From an uncultured Gammaproteobacteria bacterium (GTDB lineage Bacteria > Pseudomonadota > Gammaproteobacteria > SG8-11), in assembly GCA_964654485.1 (NCBI GenBank), contig CAZZJI010000002.1:57702-121701 (forward strand): DNA of 64,000 nucleotides. Direction: 5' to 3'. Made by a program: the position numbers and the translations under genes. The notes under the pieces were generated by a model. It was not told the DNA's origin. It did no database searches and worked only from the letters and a program-made list of their open reading frames with translations. Below are positions 1-34,070 of the stretch, one piece after another (the stretch's first letter is position 1; every line of letters begins with the position of its first letter).

Positions 1-410
1 AATAATTGCAGAAATAATTTGCGACAATAACCAGCTTCCGGCGAGGGATTGCAGACAACGCCACGGGACCTATCCTCTGGCAATACCACTTTACTGTCGA
101 TCAACCGAACCCCCATAAATTGAGTTTTTTTTGTACGAAACTCAGCGTCTTCAAGATAATGAGCCGGGTAAACTTGCGTTCCATGCAAACCATGTCTTTT
201 GACCGTGGCTTCAAACGCCTGCTTAGCCTCTGTTTGGTTTTTTTTATACTCCGCGAGCAACTTCTCATAACGTTTCAGTTGACGTAATATTTCGGCGGCC
301 AATAACAAACGTTTTTCATCCAGGAAATCATAGGCATCAAGAACCACGCCATGTTCTTCGCGAAGCTGTAAAACGGCAGAGCGAGTGGCTACGTGTTCAC
401 TACTAAGCAT
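1..410 (-). CDS. ntpD: V/A-type ATPase subunit D (N-terminal part; gene runs off the left edge)
   Basis: Reverse-strand ATG at 410..408 gives MLSSEHVATRSAVLQLREEHGVVLDAYDFLDEKRLLLAAEILR..., resembling the N-terminus of V-type D subunits (PTRMxLLxLKxxL...LLKDKxDEL pattern). It overlaps the subunit B stop by 8 nt and is the last gene of the operon. It is not in the ORF track because it is truncated. Confidence 0.55.
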   Translation of the reverse strand, partial: MLSSEHVATRSAVLQLREEHGVVLDAYDFLDEKRLLLAAEILRQLKRYEKLLAEYKKNQTEAKQAFEATVKRHGLHGTQVYPAHYLEDAEFRTKKTQFMGVRLIDSKVVLPEDRSRGVVCNPSPEAGYCRKLFLQL

Positions 411-1800
411 CCTTTTTTACCTCACACGTGATATGACGTTGAATTTGTTCGTCATCCAGCCGGTTAAGCTCAACGACGGGTAACGTTCGCAGTAAACGCC
501 AACCAATCTCCATACTTTCTTCCAATGAGCGTGCACGGCTTTGCTGCACCAACTGTTGTTCGAATCGCTCACCAAAATCAAGAAAAATGCGATCCGTTTT
601 CGACAGACCTTCAGTACCCATCACACTCGCCAATACACGCACGTGCACCGCACTTGCATAGGCTGAATACAGTTGATTGGCCAAATCTGGATGATCGGCA
701 TCAGTAAAATCTTTACCCGTCCCATCCTTCATTAACCGTGACAAACTTGGCAGCACCTTGACAGGTGGGTAGATGTCGCGTCGATTTAATTCGCGATCCA
801 GCACTATCTGCCCCTCTGTGATGAAACCCGTCAGATCGGGGATAGGATGTGTAATATCATCTGCTGGCATCGTCAGCATAGGTAACTGAGTCAGTGAACC
901 TTTCTGTCCCTGAATGCAACCGGCACGCTCATAGAGACTGGCCATATCCGAATACATATAACCGGGATAACCTTTTCGACTCGGTACTTCGCCATGACTC
1001 GCAGAAACTTCGCGTAATGCTTCACAATAGTTCGTCATATCGGTCATGATCACTAACACGTGCCGGCCGTCTATAAACGCAAGATATTCGGCTGCGGTCA
1101 GCGCGTAACGCGGCGCCAATAATCGTTGCGTACTGGAATCGGACGCCAGGTTAAGAAATAACACGGTATGCTCAAGTGCACCGCTACTTTCCATCACGCG
1201 TCGGAAACGTTCGGCAACATCATATGATACACCTATCGCGACAAACACCACTGCAAAATCACCTTTGGCCTCAGCTCCCCGAATCCTCGCATGACACGCG
1301 ATCTGTGTGGCCATACGGTCGTGTGGAAGGCCACCACTTGAGAACACAGGCAATTTTTGACCACGCACCAAACTGTTCATCAAATCGATAGTGGAGATAC
1401 CTGTTTCAATAAAATCAGTCGGCATTGCGCGTGCGACTGGATTTATTGGCAGGCCATCGATCCTTAACCGCTGCTGGCTGGACACGGGTGGCCCACCATC
1501 CAGCGGTCGCCCCACGCCGTTAAGCACTCTGCCAAGCACATCAGAACCAACACCGAAGTGCAACGGCTCACCCAAAAAACGAACCCGTGTACCTAATAGT
1601 GACAATCCGCTGGTTGTTTCAAAAACTTCTATGATTAAACTATCTTCACCTAACGCAGCAATACGACCTAACCGCACTCTACCCTGCTCATCCAATACTT
1701 CCACGGCTTCATTCAAGCCAACATTGACGTTACGTTCCAGCGTCAGCAACGGGCCCTCAATTCGTTTAGCAGTGTGACTTGAATAGACATTAACCTGCAT
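403..1800 (-). CDS. ntpB: V/A-type ATPase subunit B (non-catalytic nucleotide-binding)
   Basis: Translation is typical for V-type B (GPLLTLERNV..., conserved alpha/beta ATPase core), but it lacks a Walker-A GxxxxGKT. The likely start is the internal Met (MQVNVYSSH) at 1800, not the ORF-track start at 1896. Confidence 0.88.
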   Translation of the reverse strand: MQVNVYSSHTAKRIEGPLLTLERNVNVGLNEAVEVLDEQGRVRLGRIAALGEDSLIIEVFETTSGLSLLGTRVRFLGEPLHFGVGSDVLGRVLNGVGRPLDGGPPVSSQQRLRIDGLPINPVARAMPTDFIETGISTIDLMNSLVRGQKLPVFSSGGLPHDRMATQIACHARIRGAEAKGDFAVVFVAIGVSYDVAERFRRVMESSGALEHTVLFLNLASDSSTQRLLAPRYALTAAEYLAFIDGRHVLVIMTDMTNYCEALREVSASHGEVPSRKGYPGYMYSDMASLYERAGCIQGQKGSLTQLPMLTMPADDITHPIPDLTGFITEGQIVLDRELNRRDIYPPVKVLPSLSRLMKDGTGKDFTDADHPDLANQLYSAYASAVHVRVLASVMGTEGLSKTDRIFLDFGERFEQQLVQQSRARSLEESMEIGWRLLRTLPVVELNRLDDEQIQRHITCEVKKDA

Positions 1801-3550
1801 ATTGCGCATCCTGTTTAAGCAAACTGGAGAAGGCGTTTTCCATATCGCCAAACAGAACATCATATTGTTGCAACGCATCTTCACCAATATCTTCATTCAT
1901 GCGCCGCAAGCGCCGCATAATCGGCATCGCCGAAATTTGTTCTACATTGACTTTATGCTCTATTGCCTGCTCAGATAGGTCAATAAAATGGTTAATCAGT
2001 TGCATCATAATGGCTTGACGTCTTGGAGAACAATAGCGATCCGTTTCTGAAAAAGCGGACTGGCGAAGAAAGGCCTCGTTGATTAATTCCGCACAAATTA
2101 GCACTTGCTGTTGACGCGGCGGCAACGCATCTTTGCCAACTATGCGTGCCATGCGCTCCAAACGGGACTGCTCCTCCAGTAATGTCAAAAAACGTCTGCG
2201 CTGGCTTAACCATTCAGGATGATCGTGTTGCCGCCAAAAATCTACCAGATCATCGACATCACCGGAATAAGATTGCAATGGATGGATGGCCGGATAAAAA
2301 CGCGCTTGCGCCCGGACGCTATCTAATAACCAGAATACGCGTACATAGCGCTTTGTGTGAATCGTCACTGGCTCTGAAAAATCCGCAGAAGGCGGGCTTA
2401 TTGCACCTATTATACTCAAGGAGCCCACTTTGCCGCACAACGCACGCACATGCGCTGCGCGCTCATAGAAATCAGCAAGACGGCTGCTAAGATAGGCCGG
2501 AAAACCCGCTTCGCTTGGGATCTCTCCAAGACGCCCGGACACTTCCCGAAGTGCTTCCGCCCAACGACTGGTCGAATCCGCCATCAAGGCAACGCGCAAA
2601 CCCTGATCACGAAAATATTCTGCTGCAGTAACTGCGGTGTAAATACTTGCCTCGCGTGCCGCAACAGGCATATTCGATGTGTTGGCGATAATAACTGAAC
2701 GCTCCATTAATGGCCGTCCGGTTCGAGGATCCTCCAATTTCGGCAGATCATGTAACACGCCCGCCATTTCGTTGCCTCTCTCGCCACAACCAACGTAAAC
2801 AATCACATCCGCATCGCACCATTTTGCAAAGTTCTCTTGCAGTACGGTTTTCCCAGTGCCGAAACCACCGGGCATGGCGGCACGACCACCGCACGCGAGC
2901 GGGAAGAGACTGTCAAAAACCCGCTGCCCTGTTAACAAGGGTCCCCAGGTTGATAAACGTTCTCTTATTGGACGTGGTTTCCGTACTGGCCAAACATGAC
3001 TCATAGCCAGCGCATGTTCCTTGCCATCAACATCAAGCAGTTTGCATATCGTTTGTTTGTCGTCGTATTCACCTTCTGCAACCAACCATTGTATTTTTCC
3101 ACAAATACCCGGTGGCACGAGACAGTGCTGTCGCCGCCCCTGCACCAGGGGCATGACCGCCCCAATGACTGCGCCAGGTTTTAACTCATCCCCCACGCGA
3201 ACAACAGGTGAGAACCTGAATGTACTGGCGATAATGGGTTGTATACCAGGCTGAACATAAGTGCCGCCGTTTAATGATAAAGGTCGTAACAATCCATCAA
3301 ATATACCGCCAAGAATCCCTGGACCCAATTTAACCGACAGCGGCAACCCATTACTTTTTATTTTGTCACCTGGTCTTAGTCCACTGGTATCTTCATAAAC
3401 TTGTATCACGATTTCGTTTTTATCAATACGAATAATCTCGCCCAATAGTCGTTGATCACCCACTAACGCAACTTCGCTGATGTGAAAAATTTCCTCTGTC
3501 CTTGCTCGCAGCACTGGACCACCGATCCAGGTTATCGTGGCTTTACTCAC
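1790..3550 (-). CDS. ntpA: V/A-type ATPase catalytic subunit A
   Basis: Walker A GGFGTGKTVLQ, the V-type A N-terminal beta-barrel (GPVLRARTEE...) and the non-homologous insert region are present. The likely GTG start at 3550 (VSKATITWIGGPV) overlaps subunit E by 8 nt. Confidence 0.9.
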   Translation of the reverse strand: MSKATITWIGGPVLRARTEEIFHISEVALVGDQRLLGEIIRIDKNEIVIQVYEDTSGLRPGDKIKSNGLPLSVKLGPGILGGIFDGLLRPLSLNGGTYVQPGIQPIIASTFRFSPVVRVGDELKPGAVIGAVMPLVQGRRQHCLVPPGICGKIQWLVAEGEYDDKQTICKLLDVDGKEHALAMSHVWPVRKPRPIRERLSTWGPLLTGQRVFDSLFPLACGGRAAMPGGFGTGKTVLQENFAKWCDADVIVYVGCGERGNEMAGVLHDLPKLEDPRTGRPLMERSVIIANTSNMPVAAREASIYTAVTAAEYFRDQGLRVALMADSTSRWAEALREVSGRLGEIPSEAGFPAYLSSRLADFYERAAHVRALCGKVGSLSIIGAISPPSADFSEPVTIHTKRYVRVFWLLDSVRAQARFYPAIHPLQSYSGDVDDLVDFWRQHDHPEWLSQRRRFLTLLEEQSRLERMARIVGKDALPPRQQQVLICAELINEAFLRQSAFSETDRYCSPRRQAIMMQLINHFIDLSEQAIEHKVNVEQISAMPIMRRLRRMNEDIGEDALQQYDVLFGDMENAFSSLLKQDAQYAG

Positions 3551-4250
3551 TTGGCTTGTCCTTTTCTTTATCAGCCTGTTGCAAATCACCACACCGTATT
3601 CTGTATTGCGCAAGGAATTCCGCCTCAATACGAGAACGATTAACTAACAAACCTGATAATGTCCCATCGACGACCAAACCATTTGAACTAATACGAATAC
3701 CTGCTGATATATCCCGATTTACCACTAATGTTGAAGATTGGCCAGTTTGCTTAACAGTTTGTTTAGCTGTTTGTTTAGTTATGCATTCACGCAGTTGCTG
3801 CTTTTCTGCCACTGAGCAATCAGCGGGATATTCTATTCTCCAGTCATCGGTTAGCAACATCGTGGATGCAATACCCAATATATGTTCTATCCAGACCCGG
3901 CGTTGCTCCGGTAATTGCCAGCGTGACACAAGCATTTGTTGCAATTTATCCAGAGCGAATTTCAATAACCGCTGGTCACATCGGTACTGACGTTGTTTTT
4001 TTTCGGTTTGTTGTTTAGCTTTTGCTACGTCAATTTCCTGTTGTATTCTTTCACGGTTATCCAATACAACTTGGTGCATTCGCTTGCGCGCATCATGATG
4101 GGCTTGTTGAATGAGTCCCCCGGCTTGCTGACGTGCTTTGGCCTTTTCTGCTTCGCAGTATTCCTTATGATAACTTTGCACTACGTCTAATAAGCGCTCG
4201 ACTTGTGCATCAACGATACTGTCTGCTACTTTACTGTGCGCTAATGTCAT
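3543..4250 (-). CDS. ntpE: V/A-type ATPase subunit E (peripheral stalk)
   Basis: Charged coiled-coil N-terminus and a C-terminal globular segment (GIRISSNGLVVDGTLSGLL...RIEAEF) typical of E subunits. Position between F and A. Confidence 0.6.
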   Translation of the reverse strand: MTLAHSKVADSIVDAQVERLLDVVQSYHKEYCEAEKAKARQQAGGLIQQAHHDARKRMHQVVLDNRERIQQEIDVAKAKQQTEKKQRQYRCDQRLLKFALDKLQQMLVSRWQLPEQRRVWIEHILGIASTMLLTDDWRIEYPADCSVAEKQQLRECITKQTAKQTVKQTGQSSTLVVNRDISAGIRISSNGLVVDGTLSGLLVNRSRIEAEFLAQYRIRCGDLQQADKEKDKPSE

Positions 4251-4549
4251 TCCACTATACCCAGTTGGGTACGCAATCGTGTATTTAAATTTTCCATTGT
4301 TGTTTTCGCCCTGATATCAGGGACAACCAAAATGGCTGGTGATTCCTGACTGACGAAACGTTCAAAGTCTTTGGTTGGCAACATGGCGGCATACTCTGAG
4401 GTAATTAATATCAATGTTGCATGATGGCAGGCCCATTCAATCACGTTTATGAGTTCTTTAGCTTCAAGCAGTGGTGTTCTGATTCTTACCCCTGCCATAC
4501 GAAACCCGGCGGCACTTATCTCATCACCTATAAAAACAGGCGCTGTCAT
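4247..4549 (-). CDS. ntpF: V/A-type ATPase subunit F
   Basis: 100 aa, MTAPVFIGDEISAAGFRMAGV..., matching the V-type F N-terminal motif (IAVIGDxDTVxGFRLAGV). ATGA overlap with E. Confidence 0.7.
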   Translation of the reverse strand: MTAPVFIGDEISAAGFRMAGVRIRTPLLEAKELINVIEWACHHATLILITSEYAAMLPTKDFERFVSQESPAILVVPDIRAKTTMENLNTRLRTQLGIVE

Positions 4550-4550
4550 G

Positions 4551-4904
4551 TTAAATCAACTCGTTGAGGATAAGAATTGAAATAATGAGTCCGTAGATAG
4601 CGATACCTTCTGCAAGTCCCACCATTATTAACACACGGCCAAGCAATTCCGGTTTTTCTGCCATTGCCCCAATAGCGGCACTGCCAACAGCGGCCACGGC
4701 ATACCCAGCACCCAGTGCAGACAAACCCGTCGCCAACGCCGCTGCCAAAAACCCCCATTTCAAAACCTCCGGTGACAATTGAGCAGCGCTCACCGTTCCC
4801 TCAGCAAGTGCTAATGGTGTGAACCATAATAGTAGACTGGCAGCGGCAACGATGATGCCGCTGACAGCAATAAACTTGACGAGCCTGTTACTTTGCATGT
4901 CCAT
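4551..4904 (-). CDS. ntpK: V/A-type ATPase proteolipid subunit K (c)
   Basis: Gly/Ala-rich two-helix hairpin GLSALGAGYAVAAVGSAAIGAMAEKPELLGRVLIMVGLAEGIAIYGLI with the conserved ion-binding Glu. There is an extra N-terminal hydrophobic segment. Confidence 0.75.
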   Translation of the reverse strand: MDMQSNRLVKFIAVSGIIVAAASLLLWFTPLALAEGTVSAAQLSPEVLKWGFLAAALATGLSALGAGYAVAAVGSAAIGAMAEKPELLGRVLIMVGLAEGIAIYGLIISILILNELI

Positions 4905-6777
4905 GTTGTTCTCCTTGGTAATTTTTGCGCAGCTGTTGCAGTTGTTGTTGCGATGTTTGTTTTGTGGTTTGTGGTGCTACCAGGGGCCGGAATACACGGC
5001 CGGTGCCGCGTAAAAAACGGATAAAAAATTCAAATAAAATCAGACGCGTGGTTTGAATGGAGACCACCATGCCTTCCAAAACAAGAATAATAATGTTACC
5101 TGTTATAATAACAATACCTGCCAATATAATATTATCCAGCGTATTCGCCAATACCATGACGGCCAACGATAAGCCTGCGTGTGCCAAGGCAAACGCACCA
5201 ACACGAATAAAAGAAATGGTATTTATTATTAACTGCAATAAATTTTCCAGAAGCTGCCCTAATGCCACGCCAAGTGCCTGCGCGATGTGACCTGTTGCCA
5301 CGGCTGCATTACCTGCAAAGTACCAGCATAGACCGAAGACAAATGCCACAATAAACCAGAAATTGATAAAACTACCAATGATCCCGAGATACATCACAAT
5401 AACTGCGGCATCAATCAGTAACCAACGTGTTAGTTCCGCCCGCCAGTAGGCTTGCACGCTGTTTAACAACAATCCGAGAAATAAAATGACAATGCCTCCT
5501 ATCATTGGTAAAAAAAGAACGTGTAGCGGTTCTTCAATTGGATTAACCCATAAAGGCTCAATCACGTGCTCAATGCTAAATACACTACCAAAGATAAACC
5601 CAAATACCATCGACGCAATACCACAGCCAATCAATACCTTGAGTATTGGCCAGCGTTTTTGCAACAAAACACCTATCATAAAAAGCACCATGCCTTGACC
5701 AACATCACCGAACATGTACCCAAATAACAATGGTACGACAACCGTTAACAACATGGAGGGATCTATTTCATCTTTCGCAGGCGTGCCCAGCAACTTAGCA
5801 AAAAATTCAAAGGGCTGTGTCCATCCAGGATTGCGCATCACCATAGGTGATTTTAAACCCATCGGCGGCGATGGATAATGTATGACTGCGCGTACTGTCG
5901 TTTTCTCTAGCAAGCAGTTAAGTCGCGTACCACTTACATCATTTGTCCAACCGGTAATCCAGGCGAAATTCTCAGTCACTGGTAAATCATTGATATGGGT
6001 CAGAAACCACTCTATCTGTTGAATATCACCCAGCGCCTTGGTTAATTTATGAGTTTCAGACAGTTCAGCAATCCTCTGTTTATGTTGATGTATATCCTGC
6101 TGAATTTTATTCAAACGATGTTGTACCTGGTCATAGGCTTGCCATCTGTTGCCCGCCAACCATTTGGGCAATATTACTACACGACCTTTGAGCACGATCA
6201 GGTCGTGCTGCAATGAATTAAGATCACTGGTTGATCCAACAGACAACAGAAAAATATGTTGATCGGTAGTAACACGAACTATCAACACAGATGGGGGTAA
6301 ATGCGCGATGCGGGCCGCTATCGGTAAAATAAACAGTCGTGGCATAACTACCGGGCCAGCATTGACAAAATAACTGAAATCGATAATGTCACTTTGCATG
6401 TTCATAAAAAATTCTGATAATAAGGATAACTCGATCTGTTCATTTTGCAAAGTTTCGACCAGGTTAATGACCGAGTCCACCGCCTGCTTCCATGCATTGA
6501 GCTTTTCCATGGCGTTATCCATTCTTTCGGCGGGTTGCCCGGGAACGTCGGAAGGAGACAGATCCTGATTCGGCCAATAAACTTGATAACGTCGCATCAG
6601 CCGGTTGTAGTCTTCAAGCCGATCACGTAGATCAGGCATTATGGCCCGTTTGGTTATTTCGCTGTGTGTTTCCAGCTCAACATTTCCCGAGCGAGCCAGC
6701 GCGTCAGCCATTTTCAATAAATCATCCCGAGCAATCAGTATTTCAAACCAACGAGCAGAAACGGGTCGTAGCGTCAC
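4888..6777 (-). CDS. ntpI: V/A-type ATPase subunit I (a-subunit; membrane stator)
   Basis: 629 aa with a soluble coiled-coil N-terminal half and a polytopic C-terminal half. Position and size match subunit I. Confidence 0.8.
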   Translation of the reverse strand: MTLRPVSARWFEILIARDDLLKMADALARSGNVELETHSEITKRAIMPDLRDRLEDYNRLMRRYQVYWPNQDLSPSDVPGQPAERMDNAMEKLNAWKQAVDSVINLVETLQNEQIELSLLSEFFMNMQSDIIDFSYFVNAGPVVMPRLFILPIAARIAHLPPSVLIVRVTTDQHIFLLSVGSTSDLNSLQHDLIVLKGRVVILPKWLAGNRWQAYDQVQHRLNKIQQDIHQHKQRIAELSETHKLTKALGDIQQIEWFLTHINDLPVTENFAWITGWTNDVSGTRLNCLLEKTTVRAVIHYPSPPMGLKSPMVMRNPGWTQPFEFFAKLLGTPAKDEIDPSMLLTVVVPLLFGYMFGDVGQGMVLFMIGVLLQKRWPILKVLIGCGIASMVFGFIFGSVFSIEHVIEPLWVNPIEEPLHVLFLPMIGGIVILFLGLLLNSVQAYWRAELTRWLLIDAAVIVMYLGIIGSFINFWFIVAFVFGLCWYFAGNAAVATGHIAQALGVALGQLLENLLQLIINTISFIRVGAFALAHAGLSLAVMVLANTLDNIILAGIVIITGNIIILVLEGMVVSIQTTRLILFEFFIRFLRGTGRVFRPLVAPQTTKQTSQQQLQQLRKNYQGEQHGHAK

Positions 6778-7583
6778 ATCCCCTCCTCCCGGCGTCTGGC
6801 AAATAAACTACGTTGAATGATATTACCCCGTAGACGTTCAATATCCAGCGCCACCAGTGCCAGATGTATAAATGTCGCAACAGCTTGAAAGTTATATTTA
6901 CGAAACAAAATCCTCAGTTGTCTAACTAATGTTTCCCGTGTTTGCCAGGTGTGGTTTAAAGGACTTTGGCGAAAACTAACCAGGTGTTGATTTAATAGTG
7001 CAATAAGTTGTAATAGTGGTTGAGCATGTTTAGTATTTTTCACTGGCCATAAACTTTGCCAGTGTTGTACCCAGGCATCGGGTAATGTCATTCCGGATTG
7101 CCATGCCGGTATTAATGGTGCGTAACCGGATTGTTTCATGTACTCAATGCGTAGTTCCGGATTGGTGATACTAAAACGTTTTAAGCGTGGATTATCTAGC
7201 ATCCATGTCAACGCGGTATTACCGGTCAACAGGTATTGAAACGCGGGCAAATCAGGCAAATATTTAGTCCAATAGACTGATTTTTTCCATTGTTGAGGCT
7301 GCCATAGCGCAACCTCATCGATATAAAGAAGATATTGATTAATCAGGTTGGTTTCCAGCGTATGGTAATCATCGTGTTCATGCAAACTCAGCACCCAGGG
7401 CCGTAAAACAGTACGACGCGCATTTTGCAAATAACCCGCCAATTCTTTAAACGTTTCAAGCTGTTGCCAGGTACGTTCATCAGGCCGATCACCATGGCGA
7501 GCATGTAATCTGGCCTGTACATATGCGAATGTTGCAAGTTGATTCATGAACTTATCTCGTGCTAGTAATTTTTGTTGCATCAA
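6774..7583 (-). CDS. V/A-type ATPase subunit C/d-like (central stalk socket) protein
   Basis: 269-aa helical, Trp/Leu-rich protein inside the operon, with a 4-nt overlap with I. The assignment is by context and helical character only; it is shorter than typical d subunits. Confidence 0.45.
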   Translation of the reverse strand: MMQQKLLARDKFMNQLATFAYVQARLHARHGDRPDERTWQQLETFKELAGYLQNARRTVLRPWVLSLHEHDDYHTLETNLINQYLLYIDEVALWQPQQWKKSVYWTKYLPDLPAFQYLLTGNTALTWMLDNPRLKRFSITNPELRIEYMKQSGYAPLIPAWQSGMTLPDAWVQHWQSLWPVKNTKHAQPLLQLIALLNQHLVSFRQSPLNHTWQTRETLVRQLRILFRKYNFQAVATFIHLALVALDIERLRGNIIQRSLFARRREEGM

Positions 7584-7926
7584 GCTGTGTTGTAGTCAGC
7601 GCAACAGCAATTTGATCCAGCACGTCAGACATCGCTACAATATCAAATCGATCTTCTTGCTCATCCTCTTTTAGTTGTTTTGACACATGTTGCATACGAG
7701 TTATCTCGTCAGAAATCTTTCGACTACAGCGCTGATGAATTCGGGCAATTCGATTGTTATTTCGCTCACCAATGCGGCGAGCCGTTTGACGTGCTTGTTC
7801 GAGGATACGCTCAGTATCTGCTACACATTGTGCAACTTGTTGCTGGGCGTCACGCTCGGCCTTAAGCACATCATTAATTGCTTGGTCTGTGGTGATGCTG
7901 GCCTTATTGGTAGATTTTTTTTTCAT
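7552..7926 (-). CDS. V/A-type ATPase subunit G/H-like (small charged coiled-coil stalk protein)
   Basis: 124-aa, highly charged predicted coiled coil (AERDAQQQVAQ...EQARQTARR). It is the first gene of the operon, as in Thermus/Enterococcus ntp operons. Confidence 0.4.
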   Translation of the reverse strand: MKKKSTNKASITTDQAINDVLKAERDAQQQVAQCVADTERILEQARQTARRIGERNNNRIARIHQRCSRKISDEITRMQHVSKQLKEDEQEDRFDIVAMSDVLDQIAVALTTTQLDATKITSTR

Positions 7927-7996
7927 AATGTGTAGTTCGAATGTGTCAGATTAAATAACCTGTTTTTTATCCAAAAACACCTGGAAGGCACCTTAA

Positions 7997-8995: not shown

Positions 8996-9045
8996 GATTA
9001 ACCTTCTTCTTTATATCGAGTTTATACCCATCACAAATAGATATA

Positions 9046-11313: not shown

Positions 11314-11335
11314 TGCATTTTACACAGAGGCATTT

Positions 11336-12448: not shown

Positions 12449-12507
12449 TGTTTTTATTCAACCGTTATATTTCCAATAATAAGACCACGAATATATTTTA
12501 TTAATGC

Positions 12508-13290
12508 TTATAACCTAACGTTACTATGTTCAGGATCAAGCCGTGTTTTATTCTGTTTAACTTGCTGCCGCAGCCAATCTATCCAAAGAATTACCCCATT
12601 ACCAGACTTAACAGATAACAGGATAACAGGCGCTGTGCTCGCAAGCTGCCTTAAATAATGTTCAGCTTTCGCGGGATCAAAATCATCTATCACTGTTAAT
12701 AAATCTGACTTGCTAATAAGCACGAGATCAGCAACCCGAAACATTACCGGATATTTGGCCGGTTTGTCATCACCCTCGGTGACTGATAGCAAGGTAATAT
12801 TATGATGATGCCCAAGATCAAAACTAGCTGGACAAACGAGATTACCGACGTTTTCAATAAAAACAATATCCAATGGCTCAAGATCAATTTGCTGTAATGC
12901 ATCATGGACCATGTGAGCATCCAGATGACATGCGCTTCCGGTTGTAATTTGAATCGCGGTGACACCTTTGGCACGAATACGCTCGGCATCATTTTCCGTC
13001 TCCAGGTCGCCTTCGATGACCGCAATATTAAATTCATGTTGCAAAGCATCGATGCTCGATTCCAGCAAAGCTGTTTTACCGGAGCCCGGGGACGACATCA
13101 GGTTAAGTGTCAGTACCTGATGTTTATCGAAATGTTGGCGATTATGCATCGCCTGGTGATCATTTTCTGACAATAAATTAGTTAATACATCAACGACGGT
13201 TGTGCCAGATTGCATTTTCGCCAGCTTCCCATCAGGCTGGATCAAGTGTTTATTGCCCGGTGTTATATTACAACCACAGCTATCACACAT
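12508..13290 (-). CDS. hypB: Nickel-insertion GTPase HypB
   Basis: N-terminal MCDSCGC high-affinity Ni site, P-loop GSPGSGKT and the CH-motif region. Confidence 0.9.
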   Translation of the reverse strand: MCDSCGCNITPGNKHLIQPDGKLAKMQSGTTVVDVLTNLLSENDHQAMHNRQHFDKHQVLTLNLMSSPGSGKTALLESSIDALQHEFNIAVIEGDLETENDAERIRAKGVTAIQITTGSACHLDAHMVHDALQQIDLEPLDIVFIENVGNLVCPASFDLGHHHNITLLSVTEGDDKPAKYPVMFRVADLVLISKSDLLTVIDDFDPAKAEHYLRQLASTAPVILLSVKSGNGVILWIDWLRQQVKQNKTRLDPEHSNVRL

Positions 13291-13314
13291 AACTTTTCCT
13301 CATTTATGTCTGCA

Positions 13315-13665
13315 CTAATGCTCAGTTCGCATTTCAATCCGTTCAAGTAGTAATTCATCGCCACTTAATATTTCAGTTTGCCAATCGCCGCATTGTCCAC
13401 AAATCAAGCGATTAATACTGACTTCGCTTTCAGCAAAACAGGCTCGACAGCGAACACGTATCGGCATTGAGCTTATTATAAGCTTGGCTTGCTCAGCGAC
13501 CGTGTCTGCACTGGCGAAAGGAAAAACTGACAGCAACAAATTGGGTTCCACGCCGGACAACGGACCTACTTGTAAATAAATAATCTCAACCACAGAGGCT
13601 TTATGTTCAGCAGCGATGTTGCCAACCTGCTTAAGTAAACTTTGACATATCGACAGTTCATGCAT
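13315..13665 (-). CDS. hypA: Nickel metallochaperone HypA
   Basis: Begins MHELSICQ at the internal Met of the track ORF. Zn site CRACF...CGQCG. Overlaps hypC by 8 nt. Confidence 0.85.
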   Translation of the reverse strand: MHELSICQSLLKQVGNIAAEHKASVVEIIYLQVGPLSGVEPNLLLSVFPFASADTVAEQAKLIISSMPIRVRCRACFAESEVSINRLICGQCGDWQTEILSGDELLLERIEMRTEH

Positions 13666-13900
13666 TGTCAGGCTCCGCCTGGGCTGCCAACAGTTCATCG
13701 AACAATTCCCATGCTGACAAGGCATAGGATTCAGTTATCTTCTGAATAGCATAACCAACATGAATCAACACATAATCACCTGGGTTAAGATCCGCGTCCT
13801 GGAGTAAAAAAAGACTCACCTCCCTCTGCACACCTTTGGCCTCACAACGAGCGTTGAATCCGTTAATCTCCTTGATTTGCATTGGTATAGCAAGACACAT
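13658..13900 (-). CDS. hypC: Hydrogenase assembly chaperone HypC
   Basis: 80 aa starting MCLAIP, the essential Cys2 motif. Confidence 0.85.
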   Translation of the reverse strand: MCLAIPMQIKEINGFNARCEAKGVQREVSLFLLQDADLNPGDYVLIHVGYAIQKITESYALSAWELFDELLAAQAEPDNA

Positions 13901-14008
13901 AGCCGTATGCTCAATTTTGGTTAGAAATATTCTTTTCCACTATATATATGACATAATACTTCAAACTAAAGCTGCATGAATAATTTCAGGTTTGATCTCA
14001 ATACTAAC

Positions 14009-14091
14009 TTGACAGTAGTATACTTGTCAGGATTATAGTTGTTCCATTGGGGTATATACTAGTTATAAGCTAAAGTTTATAAGCTAAAGTT
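14009..14091. promoter_or_regulatory. Divergent hypC / omp promoter region with a palindrome and a 14-nt tandem direct repeat
   Basis: Palindrome TGACA-gtagtatact-TGTCA at 14009-14030, and TATAAGCTAAAGTT repeated twice at 14063-14091. Confidence 0.35.
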
Positions 14092-14145
14092 ATCCGCTAT
14101 TTATCGGTATATATTGCTAACCTGGAGAAATGGTCACTTGGGGAA

Positions 14146-14781
14146 ATGAAAAATTCTACCTGCATTCGCATCGTTTTTATCAGTGGTTTATTCTTTACGA
14201 TGACACTTCAAGCAAAAACTGAGATAACACCGATATTTGGCTACCGTTTTGGAGGTGAATTTACAGACATCACCGCCGTAAGCAAACTGAAAGTCACTGA
14301 CGATAACATTGCCGGGTTTTTGGTAAGTTTTGACAAGGATGCGCGCGCTCAATACGAGTTTTTATACAGCCATCAATCTTCCAGATTAAAAACGAACGCC
14401 TCTGTCGGGAATAATATTCTGTTTGATATGGATATTGATTATATCCAGATTGGCGGCACCGCACTCTGGCCGGAACTGTGGCCTGAACTTCGGCACCAAG
14501 ATAAGGTAACTCCGTTTCTGGCAGGTGGCCTGGGCTTAACGCATATGAGTCCGGATATATCGGGGTCTGATTCCGCGACCCGATTTTCATTCAATATCGG
14601 TGGCGGACTAAAGTGGTTCCTCAACGATCGAATCGGTATTCGCCTGGAAGTACGCGCCTATGGCACATTATTCGACAATGGTTCAGCGATTTTCTGCAGC
14701 AATGGTAATTGTGACATCAGTGTCACAGGTAATTTGTTTTCGCAGTTTGAAACTAATATCGGTGTCTTTGGTCATTTTTAA
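14146..14781 (+). CDS. Outer-membrane beta-barrel protein (OmpW/OmpA-like fold)
   Basis: Signal peptide, alternating amphipathic beta-strand pattern and a C-terminal aromatic Phe (…GVFGHF). Confidence 0.55.
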   Translation: MKNSTCIRIVFISGLFFTMTLQAKTEITPIFGYRFGGEFTDITAVSKLKVTDDNIAGFLVSFDKDARAQYEFLYSHQSSRLKTNASVGNNILFDMDIDYIQIGGTALWPELWPELRHQDKVTPFLAGGLGLTHMSPDISGSDSATRFSFNIGGGLKWFLNDRIGIRLEVRAYGTLFDNGSAIFCSNGNCDISVTGNLFSQFETNIGVFGHF

Positions 14782-14840
14782 CACCCACCTGCATTGCCCT
14801 ATTTCAAGTTAGCCATTAATTCCTTTATTGACGTTAATCG

Positions 14841-15296
14841 TTAACACAATATCTCTGACTTGATATTAGCCAATAACCCGGGTAACGCTTTTTCTACAGA
14901 TTGACTCAAGCCGCTTTCATAATTGCATTGCTCCATCTCTACTCCCCAAACAGAAATAAATTCGGGCAGCTCTCCAAGTGAGAGTGCAACGTCGATGGCA
15001 TCTTTTATACTAATACCATGGGATGATAGTTTGGTCGGACAGGTGTTCCATTGATCAGTGCCTAAATCTATTTTCCTTACTGTGCCCGGTTTTTCGCCTG
15101 AACGCATTGCATCAATAAAGAGTATTTGTTTTGCATGGGAAATTTTACTTACCCACTCTATAGCGGAACGATCACATACAACAAACTCAACGGTCGGTAA
15201 ATTACCAATTTCTATTTTTAATTGTTCACAGGCTATCCAACCTATTTGGTCATCTCCATAGGGTGAACCTAAACCAACAATCAACGCCCTCGTCAT
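14841..15296 (-). CDS. Hydrogenase maturation endopeptidase (HybD/HoxW family)
   Basis: MTRALIVGLGSPYGDDQIG... N-terminal motif. It follows the large subunit directly; the large-subunit stop abuts its start. Confidence 0.8.
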   Translation of the reverse strand: MTRALIVGLGSPYGDDQIGWIACEQLKIEIGNLPTVEFVVCDRSAIEWVSKISHAKQILFIDAMRSGEKPGTVRKIDLGTDQWNTCPTKLSSHGISIKDAIDVALSLGELPEFISVWGVEMEQCNYESGLSQSVEKALPGLLANIKSEILC

Positions 15297-16594
15297 TGTC
15301 TGGTCACCGTCAGATTTAAAAAATGTGTTGCACACGAAATACAGGGATCATAGTTACGTACAACCTGTTCCGCCTGAAAACGCAGTTTTTCTTCTGTCGC
15401 ATCCAGTCCATATTGCTCCAGTGTGAAGCGCAAGTCGTCTTCGATTCGCGCCTGGTTCTGACTGGTCGGTGGCACAATCCGTGCTGCTTGCACCACACCC
15501 TTTTTATTTATTTCATATTGATGCCATAAGCTACCGCGCGGCGCTTCTGTGCAGCCATAAGCAATGCCTTTTTTTGGCACTACGTCAACAAAAGGTGACT
15601 TGGGAACTTGATAATTCTCTAACAAGCGAATTGCTTCAATCAATGCATAATAAATTTCAGCCGCTCTTGCGACGATACTGTGATACACATTCTGACTGGG
15701 AAATTGAATTTTTGTTTCTTCTATAGATTGTTTAACTTCAGGATGTAACTTACCGTAGTTCAGGTTCATTCTCGCCAGTGGACCAACAAGATAAGGCTGC
15801 CCTGATAAAGTACAATGCAGAGCGGTTGAATAAATAACCTGCTTTTCCTCAAAGTGATGCTCAAATTGATTAATAGGGATATGTAAACCTTGAGTTGATA
15901 TAAGATCACCTTCATTCATTGGGTATTCGTGAGGATGACTGACAGAGACACTGGAAAAATCTTGCGCCAATTTTGGAAATTTTAACGCGGCTGTCCAATG
16001 AATTAATGCTTCTGCATCAGGTAATGCCGCATGGAGTTTATCCAGTAACGCGTTAATTTCTTCACTGGCTGGTGCGCGTGTGAAACCACCCACTTTTGCA
16101 CCTACCGGGTTAACCGATCGAGCGCCGAATAATCGTATTAAATCATTACCCAACGCCTGTAATTTTAACCCCCTGCGTAACTCTTGCGAATATTCCTTTG
16201 CCATGGCAGGTGCGCTGTCATAACCTAAAAAATCCGGTGCTGCAAGCAAATGGATATGCAAACTGTGGCTTTCCAACCATTCGCCACAATAAAATACACG
16301 ACGCATATCGCGCACCCATGAACCTGGATCGATGCCAAACAATGTTTCAAACGCGTGCACAGCACTCATTTGATAAGCAACCGGACAAATGCCGCATATT
16401 CGTGAAACAATGTCTGGTACTTCAGTATAAAGCCGTCCTTCAAGGAGTTTTTCAAATAACCGCGGTGGCTCAAAAATACGCAGTTCCAGTCTTTCTATTT
16501 TATTTTGTTTGATAGAAATATCTAATGCACCCTCACCTTCGACGCGCGCGAGCACTGGCACAGTTATTTTTCTTTTATTTTTATTATTTGGCAC
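15293..16594 (-). CDS. [NiFe] hydrogenase large (alpha) subunit, group 3b-like
   Basis: N-terminal RICGICPVAY (RxCGxC) and C-terminal DPCISCATH (DPCxxCxxH) Ni-Fe ligand motifs, followed by a 9-aa cleavable tail. The 433-aa size fits cytosolic group 3. Confidence 0.9.
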   Translation of the reverse strand: MPNNKNKRKITVPVLARVEGEGALDISIKQNKIERLELRIFEPPRLFEKLLEGRLYTEVPDIVSRICGICPVAYQMSAVHAFETLFGIDPGSWVRDMRRVFYCGEWLESHSLHIHLLAAPDFLGYDSAPAMAKEYSQELRRGLKLQALGNDLIRLFGARSVNPVGAKVGGFTRAPASEEINALLDKLHAALPDAEALIHWTAALKFPKLAQDFSSVSVSHPHEYPMNEGDLISTQGLHIPINQFEHHFEEKQVIYSTALHCTLSGQPYLVGPLARMNLNYGKLHPEVKQSIEETKIQFPSQNVYHSIVARAAEIYYALIEAIRLLENYQVPKSPFVDVVPKKGIAYGCTEAPRGSLWHQYEINKKGVVQAARIVPPTSQNQARIEDDLRFTLEQYGLDATEEKLRFQAEQVVRNYDPCISCATHFLNLTVTRQ

Positions 16595-17366
16595 CTTTTT
16601 TTCCCAGATTAATAGCAGCTTGTTTAAATGCGGGCGAATTATTTTGGATAAAAAGATATCGTTTCTCTATGTCCTCATTAAGTAAACCGAGCCCTGCAAA
16701 ACAAGTTGTCAGCGAGTCTGTATTTGTATTTTCAGATGGCCCAAAGCAGCCATAACAATCCCGGCCAAATCTCGGACAAAGTGCACCACAACCAGTACGA
16801 GTGATCGGCCCCAGACAGGGCACCCCTTTAGCGACCATAATGCAGACAGCTTGACTACGCTTGCACTCCAAACATATTTTTTCTGTTTCTTCAAACGGTT
16901 TCACACCGGATAACAGCGAATGAATAGCTGTAATTAACTGGCGCTTGTCGATCGGACATCCCCAAAGTTGATAATCCACTCTGACCTGATCAGAAATCGG
17001 TGTAGATGCATCGAGGCTATCGATGTATTTCGGTTTGGCATAAATATCTTTGATCCATTTTTTTGTATCATGGATATTTTTCAGTGCTTGTATGCCACCT
17101 GATGTTGCACATGCGCCAATCGTAATTAAGTATTGACTATTGCTTCGTATCGCCTGAAGACGAGCGATTTCATCAGACGTAGAAATGCTGCCTTCGATAA
17201 AAGCAATATCAACTTTAATATCAGGGTTAACAGGCCCCGCCTCGGGGAAATGGACAATATCCGTTATTGTAAAAAGTTCGATTAATTGCTCCCCAAGATT
17301 CAGGAAAGCAAGCTGACACCCGTCACACGAAGTAAATTTATGTACTGCTATTTTGGGTTTATCCAT
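16584..17366 (-). CDS. [NiFe] hydrogenase small (delta) subunit
   Basis: Starts MDKPKIAVHKFTSCDGCQ (proximal cluster Cys), the NuoB-like fold typical of group-3 small subunits. Confidence 0.85.
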   Translation of the reverse strand: MDKPKIAVHKFTSCDGCQLAFLNLGEQLIELFTITDIVHFPEAGPVNPDIKVDIAFIEGSISTSDEIARLQAIRSNSQYLITIGACATSGGIQALKNIHDTKKWIKDIYAKPKYIDSLDASTPISDQVRVDYQLWGCPIDKRQLITAIHSLLSGVKPFEETEKICLECKRSQAVCIMVAKGVPCLGPITRTGCGALCPRFGRDCYGCFGPSENTNTDSLTTCFAGLGLLNEDIEKRYLFIQNNSPAFKQAAINLGKKGAK

Positions 17367-17368
17367 TT

Positions 17369-18199
17369 TTAAAAACCTTTTAGCCCAAATGTTTCCTTGA
17401 TTTTGTCGTAACGAAAAACCGGCCCATTCTTGCAAATAAAATGCGGCCCATATTGACAATGCCCACAATGCCCTAACGCGCATTTCATATTGCGCTCCAT
17501 ACTTAGATAAATGGCCTCTACAGGCACATTCCTTAATGTTAATTCATGAATACAAACGCGCATCATGCCTTCCGGACCACACATCATCACAATGGTATTA
17601 TCACTGATGTTCATTTGATCAAAGAGTTCTATCACCAGCCCAACATGCCAGGGCCACGACGGATCACCCTTGTCAGCCGCTAGAAATACATCTGTGTCTG
17701 GCTGTTGCAGCCACTGTTCATATCGTTCACGCCAAATAAGATCTTTTGGCAGCTTTACACCTTGCAGAATGGTGAGTTTGCCAAAATCATCACGCCTTTG
17801 GTTAATATAATTAATGACGGATACCACGGGAGCACAACCCAGCCCACCCGTTATTACCAGCACATCTTTTCCTTGTGCTTCTGCAAGTGGCCAGCCTAGT
17901 CCGTAAGGTCCTCGTAATCCAATACAATCACCTTTATTCAGCTTACTCAAGCCCTGGGTTACTCGCCCGACAACGCGAATCGCATGGTCCAGCATCTCCG
18001 GGTCTTTTGGATCTGAAACAACAGAGATAGGGATTTCCCCTACACCATGTAAATACACCATATTAAATTGACCTGGCACAAAAGAATATTTTTTCCTTTT
18101 CTCGAGATCAGTAAATGCCAAACGTAACGTAAACACGGTTTGCGTCTCTTGAATACGCTCAATGACTTCAGCAGTATCAGGTAGATAGGGATTATGCAT
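17369..18199 (-). CDS. Hydrogenase gamma subunit (FAD/NAD(P)-binding, [2Fe-2S]; sulfhydrogenase HydG-like)
   Basis: Ferredoxin-NADP reductase-like fold with the C-terminal Cys cluster CALGHCGHCQYGPHFICKNGPVF. The probable start is the internal Met MHNPYL. Confidence 0.8.
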   Translation of the reverse strand: MHNPYLPDTAEVIERIQETQTVFTLRLAFTDLEKRKKYSFVPGQFNMVYLHGVGEIPISVVSDPKDPEMLDHAIRVVGRVTQGLSKLNKGDCIGLRGPYGLGWPLAEAQGKDVLVITGGLGCAPVVSVINYINQRRDDFGKLTILQGVKLPKDLIWRERYEQWLQQPDTDVFLAADKGDPSWPWHVGLVIELFDQMNISDNTIVMMCGPEGMMRVCIHELTLRNVPVEAIYLSMERNMKCALGHCGHCQYGPHFICKNGPVFRYDKIKETFGLKGF

Positions 18200-19325
18200 T
18201 ACGTTCTCCACAACTGCTTTCTCCACAACAGCCCTCTCCACAAATGACATTCACTTCTTCTGTAAAATCTATACTGGCTGGACACCAGGTGATACAACGG
18301 CCACAGCCTACGCAGCCGGAACGGCCATATTGATCGTGCCAACTTCCAAGCTTATGCGTCAACCACTGACGATACCGAAATTTCGTTTCTGCTCGGACAA
18401 CCAGACCGTGCATATAGCTATGCTCTTGTGTAAAACAAGAACTCCATTGTCGATAATGACTTATTTCCTTCGCATCCAATGTGACATCGTCGTGTTCACT
18501 GTGACAAAAGCAAGTGGGACAAACTGCGGTACAATTTCCACAGGATAGGCAACGCTCGGCTATCTTTTGCCATTGAGGATGATCCAGTTGTTCGAATAGG
18601 CTATCGCGTAAATTACGTCCAGGTAAAGTTCGCGTTTGTTTTTTGGCGGTATATTCTATCTGATGTCGTGCTTCAAGTAATTGTTGTTCAGTGGCCGTGT
18701 TGAGATGAAGTTGATCCAATATTTTTTGACCTTGTTCGGACCCGCTAGTGATAATGAAACCGTTATCAAGTTCCAGCAATGACAAATCAAAACCTGCTTT
18801 CACTTCAGGTCCATCACCGGTTGACACACAAAAACAGGTTTCTGCAGAATGTGTACAACCCACTGCAACAATAAGCATGTTTTCACGACGTGCTTTGTAA
18901 TAGGGATCCTGATACTCTCCCTGCAAAAAATGCTTATCCTGTAACTCGAGTGCGGCCAGATCACATGCGCGTACACCAATCATGGCCAGATGTTCTGGTG
19001 CCGGTATTGTCTGAGTAAAGTCAATGTTGGTCTTTTCTTTTCGAGTCGCCTTCCAAAGGTATTCTCTGGGGGTAAAAAGAAAGGGTTTGAGGTTCTGCGG
19101 TCCGTTGGCCCATGAAAACCAACGACCGTTACCCGTCTTTTTTAGTTTATATCGCCCGGGTGCTTGTTCATCTTGAATATCGAGTGGAAAATCTGCCGTA
19201 GTATGCACTTCATCGTAAACAATAGCGTCATCCTTTAATTTAGGTCCAATAAGTTTATACCCATCACTTTGTAAGGAGATAATAAGGTTCTGAAATTTTT
19301 TTCGGTTTAAAAAAAATGACGTCAT
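18192..19325 (-). CDS. Hydrogenase beta subunit (Fe-S cluster protein; sulfhydrogenase HydB-like)
   Basis: Several CxxCxxC...CP ferredoxin motifs (CLSCGNCTAVCPTCFCH; CVGCGRCITWCP). Confidence 0.8.
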   Translation of the reverse strand: MTSFFLNRKKFQNLIISLQSDGYKLIGPKLKDDAIVYDEVHTTADFPLDIQDEQAPGRYKLKKTGNGRWFSWANGPQNLKPFLFTPREYLWKATRKEKTNIDFTQTIPAPEHLAMIGVRACDLAALELQDKHFLQGEYQDPYYKARRENMLIVAVGCTHSAETCFCVSTGDGPEVKAGFDLSLLELDNGFIITSGSEQGQKILDQLHLNTATEQQLLEARHQIEYTAKKQTRTLPGRNLRDSLFEQLDHPQWQKIAERCLSCGNCTAVCPTCFCHSEHDDVTLDAKEISHYRQWSSCFTQEHSYMHGLVVRAETKFRYRQWLTHKLGSWHDQYGRSGCVGCGRCITWCPASIDFTEEVNVICGEGCCGESSCGERNA

Positions 19326-34017: not shown

Positions 34018-34070
34018 AGCCAGTCTCGATATAATTTGCCTGTGCTATCAGGCCTCTGGAAAACTGGGAA

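Follow-up and report, generated by a model that had tools for sequence, protein, structure and literature searches.

An A/V-type ATPase operon downstream of hypE in a gammaproteobacterial hydrogen-metabolism locus

In many bacteria an A/V-type ATPase of unsettled purpose accompanies the F-type ATP synthase: the V-type ATPases of Synechococcus have been called enigmatic (PMC7434838), the role of the Thiomargarita enzyme has only been conjectured (PMC4853749), and the Nautilia V-type ATPase has been noted without a settled role. What such an enzyme might be for is the question raised by a stretch of 64,000 nt from an uncultured Gammaproteobacteria bacterium (assembly GCA_964654485.1, contig CAZZJI010000002.1, positions 57,702 to 121,701 of the forward strand; hereafter the window), in which an ATPase operon directly follows the hydrogenase maturation gene hypE. 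According to open reading frame (ORF) listing and family scans, the minus strand from 19325 to 1 holds three modules, namely a group-3b [NiFe] hydrogenase with its protease, the maturation cluster hypCABDFE, and a nine-gene A/V-type ATPase operon. With a probability of roughly 0.6 for the explanation as a whole, this region is best explained as a supercluster for hydrogen metabolism that is native to the chromosome of a Thiohalomonadales-like gammaproteobacterium and made up of at least two transcription units. None of the components is of a new kind, and the arrangement itself is a variant that we have not found described.

An initial annotation, made from the letters of the window, had placed the three modules on the minus strand, with a single plus-strand interruption by an outer-membrane protein (OMP) gene and 70 nt between hypE and the ATPase, and all of this was borne out (OMP_b-brl, 14146-14781; hypE stop at 7997, first ATPase ATG at 7926). 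It had also described the ATPase as complete, which holds on the source contig and fails within the window, as atpD runs off the window start. Logan contig L001, which is identical to the window sequence, was used for the full atpD and for gene-start calls; several longest-ORF starts lay too far upstream and were corrected from the L001 gene calls or from the points where family alignments begin.

The hypE-ATPase junction and its conservation

The genes upstream of the ATPase form a hyp cluster with the following members:

13658..13900, minus strand: hypC; Pfam HupF_HypC, N-terminus MCLAIP
13315..13725, minus strand: hypA; Pfam HypA, aligned from residue 21; true start probably near 13665, estimated from the start of the family alignment
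12508..13290, minus strand: hypB; TIGR00073, 283 bits
11336..12448, minus strand: hypD; Pfam HypD, 1e-121
9046..11313, minus strand: hypF; Acylphosphatase, zf-HYPF, Sua5/YrdC and HypF_C domains
7997..8995, minus strand: hypE; TIGR02124, 387 bits, C-terminal PRIC motif

All six genes passed the Pfam cut-off, and the two that were also scanned against NCBIfam, hypB and hypE, passed there as well. With hypA to hypF present, together with the C-terminal PRIC cysteine of HypE and Cys2 of HypC, the Hyp maturation set is whole. The 70-nt spacer between the hypE stop and the first ATPase ATG (7927-7996, minus strand) contained neither a terminator-like nor a sigma-70-like site in our scans, and its predicted fold is unremarkable (z -1.25). 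As in a single transcription unit, the hyp and ATPase genes lie on the same strand with a short spacer, no terminator was seen between them (a weak argument, see below), and their adjacency is kept across divergent genomes. Read-through or co-regulation from hypE into the ATPase, which the initial annotation had regarded as plausible, is supported by the lack of such sites in 7927-7996 and by the conserved adjacency.

Subunit A of the ATPase has thousands of relatives, the top 120 of which are 66-90% identical and belong mainly to gammaproteobacterial metagenome-assembled genomes (MAGs) and to the Solemya velum gill symbiont. About 90 loci of the ATPase family were collected by exact-protein look-ups, one genome scan, and one metagenome scan seeded with the 257-amino-acid protein of the operon, and were annotated by tblastn with the window's proteins. 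The genome-contig scan with subunit A yielded two true relatives, L002 and L003; its other 78 matches were distant (26-37% identical over part of the query) and are probably FliI- or F-type-like ATPases. The gene order G-d/C-I-K-F-E-A-B-D (subunit names) is common to all loci that extend far enough.

The check that had been suggested at the outset, a search for the hypE-ATPase adjacency in other genomes, came out positive: one subclade comprises 17 distinct lineages, and in 14 of these, the window included, the ATPase operon begins directly behind hypE (hypE-linked loci: L002, L003, L082, L084/85, L086/99/101, the P0031 locus, L092, L093, L094, L118/121, L123, L169, L171 and L172; subclade lineages without the link: L088, L170 and L090/91). 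Outside the subclade, the adjacency occurs in none of 38 informative loci. The hypE-linked subclade forms one clade with 99-100% bootstrap support in neighbour-joining trees of subunits d/C and I (54 taxa) and of d/C, I, A and B (32 taxa), which were built on corrected p-distances and rooted at the midpoint. The spacer measures mostly 18-33 nt in the hypE-linked lineages, and 18-55 nt in 11 of the 13 relatives (55 nt in L169); the longer spacers are those of the window (70 nt) and L092 (136 nt), and frameshifted L082 gave no measurement.

The genes outside the block differ at every locus (for example GGDEF/NMT1, pilin-like, AAA_16, EVE or DsbD_2 genes, and the OMP gene and 3b operon in the window), and this reshuffling of the flanks around a constant junction argues that the junction has been maintained beyond inherited history. 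In L003, hypE is intact and lies 24 nt before the ATPase, all other hyp genes are gone, and a divergent ROK kinase gene and a promoter-sized gap of 330 nt lie upstream of hypE, which here looks like the first gene of the ATPase operon. Five further loci (L082, L172, L094, L121 and L123) have another hyp cluster order, hypB-F-C-D-E, and their hypE genes share only 42-47% identity with those of the other loci, among which the identity is 65-89%. The ATPase genes of these five loci nest beside L084 with 84-100% support, so that the hyp cluster appears to have been exchanged while the hypE-ATPase arrangement was kept. In one subclade of a large bacterial A/V-ATPase family, then, the junction is an old feature that has been retained.

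Some of the related loci deserve comment in their own right. The d/C gene of the closest relative (L002:6055-6825) contains an in-frame stop codon, and many hyp genes on the 1.36-Mb contig L082 are frameshifted; both are probably assembly errors rather than pseudogenes. L084 and L085, deposited as the cyanobacterium 'Kaarinaea lacus' (Nostocales), hold a full hypABDFE-ATPase-hupD-hupH block whose products resemble those of the window (72-75% identity for HypD, HypE and subunit A, 63-70% for HypA, HypB and HypF); under this label the block reflects either assembly contamination or transfer, and no taxonomic conclusion is drawn from it. Contig L170 (GCA_051439605.1, JBFRWN010000124.1) carries PsbO, NdhA and NdhH genes and is truly cyanobacterial, and its ATPase nests inside the hyp-linked clade, a placement which suggests that the ATPase operon was transferred on its own. 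The same contig has a trio of Oxidored_q6, Complex1_49kDa and Pyr_redox_2 genes about 2.5 kb upstream of the ATPase operon, on the other strand.

The ATPase and its subunits

The operon that follows hypE runs from 7926 to 1 in the order G, d/C, I, K, F, E, A, B, D:

7552..7926, minus strand: subunit G/H-like peripheral stalk, 124 amino acids; weak matches to V-type subunit H, ATP-synt_B, MJ0223 and V-ATPase G
6774..7547, minus strand: short subunit d/C, 257 amino acids, labelled 'hypothetical' in databases; assigned by predicted structure and fold search
4888..6777, minus strand: subunit I (a); Pfam V_ATPase_I, NCBIfam PRK05771 variants
4551..4904, minus strand: subunit K (c); Pfam ATP-synt_C
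4247..4549, minus strand: subunit F; Pfam ATP-synt_F
3543..4250, minus strand: subunit E-like, 235 amino acids; collinear profile match to Thermus V-type subunit E (E about 0.2), operon position conserved
1790..3550, minus strand: catalytic subunit A; PRK04192, 715 bits (cut-off 470), ATP-synt_ab_Xtn domain
403..1800, minus strand: non-catalytic subunit B; PRK04196, 648 bits (cut-off 349)
1..410, minus strand: subunit D, cut by the window edge (136 of 205 codons); weak TIGR00309 match for the fragment, Pfam ATP-synt_D for the full L001 gene

The starts of d/C (7547), atpA (3550) and atpB (1800) are those of the L001 gene calls. Subunit A has the Walker A motif GGFGTGKT and carries the non-homologous insert (ATP-synt_ab_Xtn), and subunit B is without a P-loop. 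The central stalk (D, F and d/C) and the membrane sector (I/a and K/c) are all accounted for, D on L001, F, I and K by Pfam, and d/C by fold. The peripheral-stalk subunits E and G/H gave weak collinear profile matches only (E 0.03-0.4; to Thermus E, MJ0223 and V-ATPase G), and their tentative assignment is backed by size and conserved operon position; the G/H-like gene is the first gene of the operon in every related locus with any gene detected or called upstream of d/C.

The 257-amino-acid protein has no Pfam or NCBIfam match, and sequence profiles against the PDB gave nothing usable. Its AlphaFold (AF2) model has a predicted local distance difference test score (pLDDT) of 91.7, and Foldseek placed subunit d of yeast and human and subunit C of Thermus at the top of its matches (probability 0.9-1.0, template modelling (TM) score 0.56-0.61), which identifies the protein, as judged from the model, as a shortened V-ATPase subunit d/C. 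The family to which it belongs comprises 852 representative clusters (745 at E<=1e-10), all of about 250-260 amino acids and all without a Pfam or NCBIfam model. Automated annotation consequently scores such ATPases as incomplete, and pathway-completeness calls are currently too low.

Subunit K (c) consists of an N-terminal signal-like segment and a single hairpin with its carboxylate within GLAEGIAIYG. The sodium-site motifs of c subunits contain Ser, Thr and Gln ligands. In the sequence and the family alignment, the carboxylate of the window's subunit has no adjacent Ser or Thr, and helix 1 is without Gln; the two-helix hairpin is nearly invariant across the ATPase family. Proton coupling is therefore predicted for this c subunit, in which one hairpin provides one carboxylate and the Ser/Thr/Gln sodium ligands are missing. 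The hydrophobic, signal-peptide-like N-terminal segment, which ends in A-x-A/E-E, is likewise conserved across the whole family. The relation of the family to archaeal and Thermus enzymes was taken from a bit-score ranking of subunit A against solved structures, in which the P. horikoshii A-type (Pyrococcus) enzyme came first (581 bits), ahead of Thermus (523), Enterococcus (468) and eukaryotic enzymes (about 460). With Pyrococcus and Thermus as the nearest solved relatives, an enzyme capable of ATP synthesis is favoured.

Among known systems, the V/A-ATP synthase of Thermus thermophilus (atpGILECFABD) shares with the window's enzyme the nine subunit types, a single-hairpin c subunit with one carboxylate, the non-homologous insert of subunit A and the d/C fold. 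It differs in gene order, since the window has G-d/C-I-K-F-E-A-B-D in an operon joined to hypE, and the window's d/C is shorter (257 versus 323 amino acids) and undetectable by sequence models, while its c subunit has the conserved signal-like N-terminal segment. The Na+-V-ATPase of Enterococcus hirae (ntp operon) is likewise a bacterial V-type rotary enzyme beside an F-type ATPase. The E. hirae enzyme is a pump, and its NtpK is a four-helix c subunit with Na+ ligands. The c subunit of the window, in contrast, is a two-helix hairpin without Na+ ligands, and its subunit A scores lower against the Enterococcus structure (468 bits) than against those of Pyrococcus (581) and Thermus (523).

Other clades of the ATPase family have neighbours of their own. 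In a sister clade (L107-L119), genes for a large PAS/GAF histidine kinase, an RR/SpoIIE (PP2C) phosphatase and a STAS protein lie on the same strand about 0.5-6 kb upstream of the ATPase, and suggest a partner-switching cassette for conditional regulation of the ATPase. In a distant peat-metagenome clade, one locus (L139:680-5300) has hypA, hypC, hydrogenase small and large subunit genes and a protease gene about 4-9 kb upstream of the ATPase; such genes are absent from L148 and L149, the only two members of the neighbouring sub-group with sequence that far upstream, and the proximity may be an independent association or chance. Loci of the peat clade (L136-L150) also show a divergent gene for a 520-amino-acid fusion of multihaem cytochrome c and cytochrome b (Ni_hydr_CYTB) upstream of the ATPase, and most of them (L139, L141, L148-L150) a UbiA prenyltransferase gene there; UbiA and multihaem cytochromes are likewise found after hynL in L086 and L171.

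Hydrogenases and other neighbours

The hydrogenase module lies beyond hyp, behind the only opposite-strand gene of the region:

18192..19325, minus strand: hydB, beta subunit (iron-sulfur (FeS), AsrA-like); Pfam Fer4_22, best NCBIfam match sulfhyd_HydB/ShyB
17369..18250, minus strand: hydG, gamma subunit (FAD/NAD(P)-binding, AsrB-like); Pfam NAD_binding_1, DHODB_Fe-S_bind and FAD_binding_6, NCBIfam PRK08345 and sulfhyd_HydG; true start probably near 18202, estimated from the start of the family alignment
16584..17483, minus strand: hydD, small (delta) subunit; Pfam Oxidored_q6, best NCBIfam match sulfhyd_HydD/ShyD; start likely at M40, about 17366, estimated in the same way
15293..16594, minus strand: hydA, [NiFe] large (alpha) subunit, group 3b; best NCBIfam match sulfhyd_ShyA/HydA
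14841..15335, minus strand: hydrogenase maturation endopeptidase; Pfam HycI, TIGR00072 (96 bits, above cut-off)
14146..14781, plus strand: outer-membrane beta-barrel protein, separating the 3b operon from the hyp operon; Pfam OMP_b-brl
13901..14145, no strand assigned: divergent hypC/OMP intergenic region, the presumed hyp promoter region

The sulfhydrogenase Hyd/Shy families (Pyrococcus) are the top NCBIfam matches for all four subunits. HydA has both nickel-binding motifs, RICGICPVAY (N-terminal RxCGxC) and DPCISCATH (C-terminal DPCxxCxxH), and its best PDB matches, over the full length, are the alpha subunit of Pyrococcus furiosus soluble hydrogenase I (SHI) and the cytosolic NiFe hydrogenase of Thermococcus kodakarensis (E 5e-67), the next family being Mvh (2e-42). 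On reading the HydD sequence, in which homology begins at MDKPKIAVHKFTSCDGCQ, no RRxF motif or twin-arginine signal was found. As in the heterotetramer of group 3b, delta and alpha are joined by a beta subunit of the FeS, AsrA-like type and a gamma subunit of the FAD/NAD(P), AsrB-like type, and hydBGDA with the protease gene are predicted to encode a cytosolic, NAD(P)-linked group-3b [NiFe] hydrogenase. P. furiosus SHI and the T. kodakarensis enzyme have the same four subunits in the same order (beta, gamma, delta, alpha), whereas the window's enzyme is a bacterial homologue which lies far under the NCBIfam equivalog cut-offs (254 versus 700 bits), and whose activity and cofactor preference are putative.

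The hydrogenase that accompanies the ATPase in many relatives is a different one. In seven lineages (L002, L084, L086, L087, L088, L093 and L171) atpD is followed by an operon hupD-hupH-hynS-isp1-isp2-hynL, which starts 160-370 nt past atpD in six of them and about 2.5 kb past it, beyond an IS110 transposase gene, in L087. From the domain pattern, we take hynS-isp1-isp2-hynL to be a group-1e hydrogenase. The operon is absent after atpD from 6 informative lineages, that of the window among them: on the source contig (L001), atpD is followed by a DsbD_2 gene on the other strand, with no 1e operon downstream. The operon of the relatives, in which hupD and hupH come ahead of hynS, resembles the Isp-type group-1e clusters of sulfur-oxidising Gammaproteobacteria; the window genome has no such operon downstream of the ATPase.

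The 3b operon, for its part, does not lie next to hyp in L093 or L099, the two relatives with sequence upstream of hypC, and the 3b-hyp adjacency is specific to the window's lineage, while hypE and, in relatives, the 1e hydrogenase are the conserved partners of the ATPase. The tie between 3b hydrogenase and ATPase that the initial annotation had proposed is not sustained by these findings: the 3b genes form a separate unit behind the divergent OMP gene, they are not beside hyp in L093 and L099, and a 1e operon follows atpD instead in many relatives.

The hypC/OMP intergenic region contains a perfect 14-nt tandem duplication, TTATAAGCTAAAGT in two copies (14063-14090), and a hairpin-forming inverted repeat (14008-14031; 8 pairs and an 8-nt loop), which may represent a candidate operator for the hyp operon. 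No further exact copy of the 14-nt repeat occurs in the window, where the best other match has 2 mismatches. Patterns of FNR boxes and sigma-54 promoters were not found upstream of hyp, hyd or ATPase genes and are not enriched in the window. Elsewhere in the window, two paralogous protein-L-isoaspartate O-methyltransferase genes flank the gene of an 825-amino-acid protein with a spermidine-synthase-like domain, an unusual trio (30745-34811, minus strand), and a 955-amino-acid fusion of PP-binding, AMP-binding and acyltransferase domains (Aas-like) is encoded at 36712-39579 (plus strand), just upstream of genes that had earlier been called nqr.

Competing explanations and the role of the ATPase

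In the explanation favoured here, to which the probability given at the outset applies, the operon would encode a proton-coupled auxiliary rotary ATP synthase/ATPase co-transcribed with the hyp genes, its direction and role being inferred. One unit would consist of hydBGDA and the protease gene, and a second of hypCABDFE followed by the nine-gene ATPase operon. The ATPase would be transcribed with or from the hyp operon and made when the cell builds hydrogenases, a state that would correspond to a hydrogen-linked, low-oxygen energy mode, with a housekeeping F-type enzyme serving the aerobic mode. It could work as an ATP synthase on a proton gradient from hydrogenase-linked electron transport. 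Between the two directions, ATP synthesis appears slightly likelier than ATP-driven pumping.

The co-regulation of ATPase and hydrogenases that is proposed here agrees with expression in the symbiont Ca. Endoriftia persephone (Mitchell et al. 2024), where Hyd1e, Hyd3b and a V-type ATPase share network neighbours with the reductive tricarboxylic acid (rTCA) cycle module (rTCA/denitrification) and the F-type ATPase groups with the Calvin-Benson-Bassham (CBB)/oxygen module (PMC11636981). The initial statement that no regulatory link between a hydrogenase and a V-ATPase had been established was thus already overtaken by this published co-expression. Likeness to the window consists in V-type ATPase, Hyd1e and Hyd3b forming one expression group apart from the F-type ATPase; in contrast to the window, the Endoriftia genes are not adjacent. 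A second precedent, Margulisbacteria RA1A, has Ech hydrogenase, V-type ATPase and Rnf in one region that was read as one energy-conserving unit (PMC6349859). As in the window, a [NiFe] hydrogenase lies together with a V-type ATPase in the same part of the genome, but the hydrogenase there is a membrane-bound, ion-pumping group-4 enzyme next to an atpEXABDIK-type operon, whereas here the partners are Hyp genes and group 3b or 1e enzymes. No published description of the hyp-ATPase-Hyn nesting was found in an incomplete literature search, which is no proof that it is unpublished.

Several points weigh against the explanation favoured here. The linkage appears to have arisen once, in one clade, so that much of its recurrence would be shared ancestry and plain lineage counts overstate independence. 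The ATPase operon stands alone in L088, after a divergent gene and a 320-nt gap; it occurs without hyp on the cyanobacterial contig L170 and behind a thioredoxin-reductase-like gene in L090/91, and all other clades of the family have other neighbours. The hypE gene of Endoriftia (RS07045) has a hypothetical gene and then fusA behind it instead of the ATPase (PMC11636981). As for the window, the promoter and terminator scans performed at chance over the whole region (41 and 19 sites versus 39 and 19.6 expected), which makes their negative result in the spacer weak evidence; the 70-nt spacer exceeds that of most relatives, and no clear Shine-Dalgarno sequence precedes the ATG at 7926. Co-transcription of hyp and ATPase genes is deduced from spacing and synteny, and ion specificity and direction from motifs. 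The only hydrogenase of the window, finally, is cytosolic and builds no gradient itself.

The last point bears on the most credible of the rival explanations, which nevertheless stays in a clear minority: with the same co-regulation and the opposite direction, the enzyme would be an ATP-driven proton pump that sustains the membrane potential through anoxic, fermentative periods by hydrolysing ATP from substrate-level phosphorylation, and the 3b hydrogenase would release excess reductant as H2. A cytosolic, bidirectional enzyme as the window's sole hydrogenase would suit this, as would the F-type ATP synthases that the examined carriers of this ATPase also have (PMC11636981; PMC7434838) and the partner-switching regulators of the sister clade (PAS/GAF kinase, RR-SpoIIE phosphatase and STAS protein), which suggest conditional use. 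However, the c subunit is of the single-hairpin kind and offers one carboxylate per hairpin, the nearest solved relatives are the Pyrococcus and Thermus ATP synthases and not dedicated pumps, and many relatives couple the operon to a periplasm-facing, uptake-type 1e hydrogenase which is able to build a gradient. An unlikely explanation, ranked below the pump, is that the junction is a frozen accident, i.e. that an A/V-ATPase operon with its own promoter and no tie to hydrogen was inserted once between the hyp and hydrogenase operons and stayed there by inertia. The monophyly of the linkage is what such an event would leave behind. The operon also does without adjacent hyp genes in all other clades, in the Solemya velum symbiont (L083) and in L088, L170 and L090/91, and hypE and the ATPase are unlinked in Endoriftia. 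Inertia sits less well with a junction that persists although both flanks are reshuffled at every locus, although all other hyp genes are gone from L003, and although some lineages have a different type of hyp cluster; spacers of 18-33 nt leave scant room for a separate promoter, and the V-ATPase is co-expressed with hydrogenases even where the genes are unlinked (PMC11636981). Bolder than the favoured explanation, and doubtful enough to be placed after the frozen accident, is the proposal that hyp, A/V-ATPase and Hyn (1e) form a co-inherited, co-transcribed hydrogen-respiration cassette, in which a dedicated second ATP synthase would harvest the gradient from periplasmic H2 oxidation or, alternatively, from H2 cycling between the cytosolic 3b and the periplasmic 1e hydrogenase, and in which obligatory wiring through hypE would ensure that the ATPase is built only when hydrogenases are matured.

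Two explanations that had been put forward in the initial annotation fare far worse. A recently acquired island of archaeal-type genes could appeal to the patchy distribution of the A/V-ATPase family, which includes a few cyanobacteria, and to a subunit A that is most like archaeal A-type enzymes among solved structures. The composition of the region is ordinary: GC content at third codon positions (GC3) is 0.42 in both the ATPase and the hyp module and 0.36 in the 3b genes, compared with 0.41 in the rest of the window (31 genes), and relative synonymous codon usage (RSCU) of the modules correlates with that of the rest at 0.88-0.89, where random 8-gene subsets give a mean of 0.90 and a 5th percentile of 0.85. 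No tRNA or Rfam match was found flanking the region, and no integrase, transposase or other mobility gene among the neighbours of the window cluster. Ordinary composition and the lack of such elements leave a recent island unsupported, and since the block is also common to a whole clade of gammaproteobacterial loci at the expected divergence, this origin is very improbable. Least probable of all is that the V-ATPase energises an intracellular vacuole or compartment, as was suggested for the V-ATPases of Thiomargarita and Beggiatoa among large vacuolate sulfur bacteria (PMC4853749). The window's Lon protease, a single marker, is closest to that of a Thiohalomonadales MAG (81%) and then to Nitrosococcus (65%), so that the host, by this gene, resembles Thiohalomonadales and not the vacuolate Beggiatoaceae; the same ATPase family is found in small-celled symbionts such as the Solemya velum gill symbiont (L083), in cyanobacteria (contig L170) and in many gammaproteobacterial MAGs, and the window encodes no compartment functions.

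This ATPase family is linked to hydrogen metabolism by its conserved, operon-like junction with hypE and by its frequent position between the hyp genes and the operon of an uptake-type hydrogenase. These features raise the hypothesis that expression of the ATPase would be induced by hydrogen or anoxia, and that its loss would have a phenotype during growth on H2. If the cassette proposal were true, there would be a defined role for the second, 'enigmatic' ATPase that many sulfur oxidisers and symbionts and some cyanobacteria possess.

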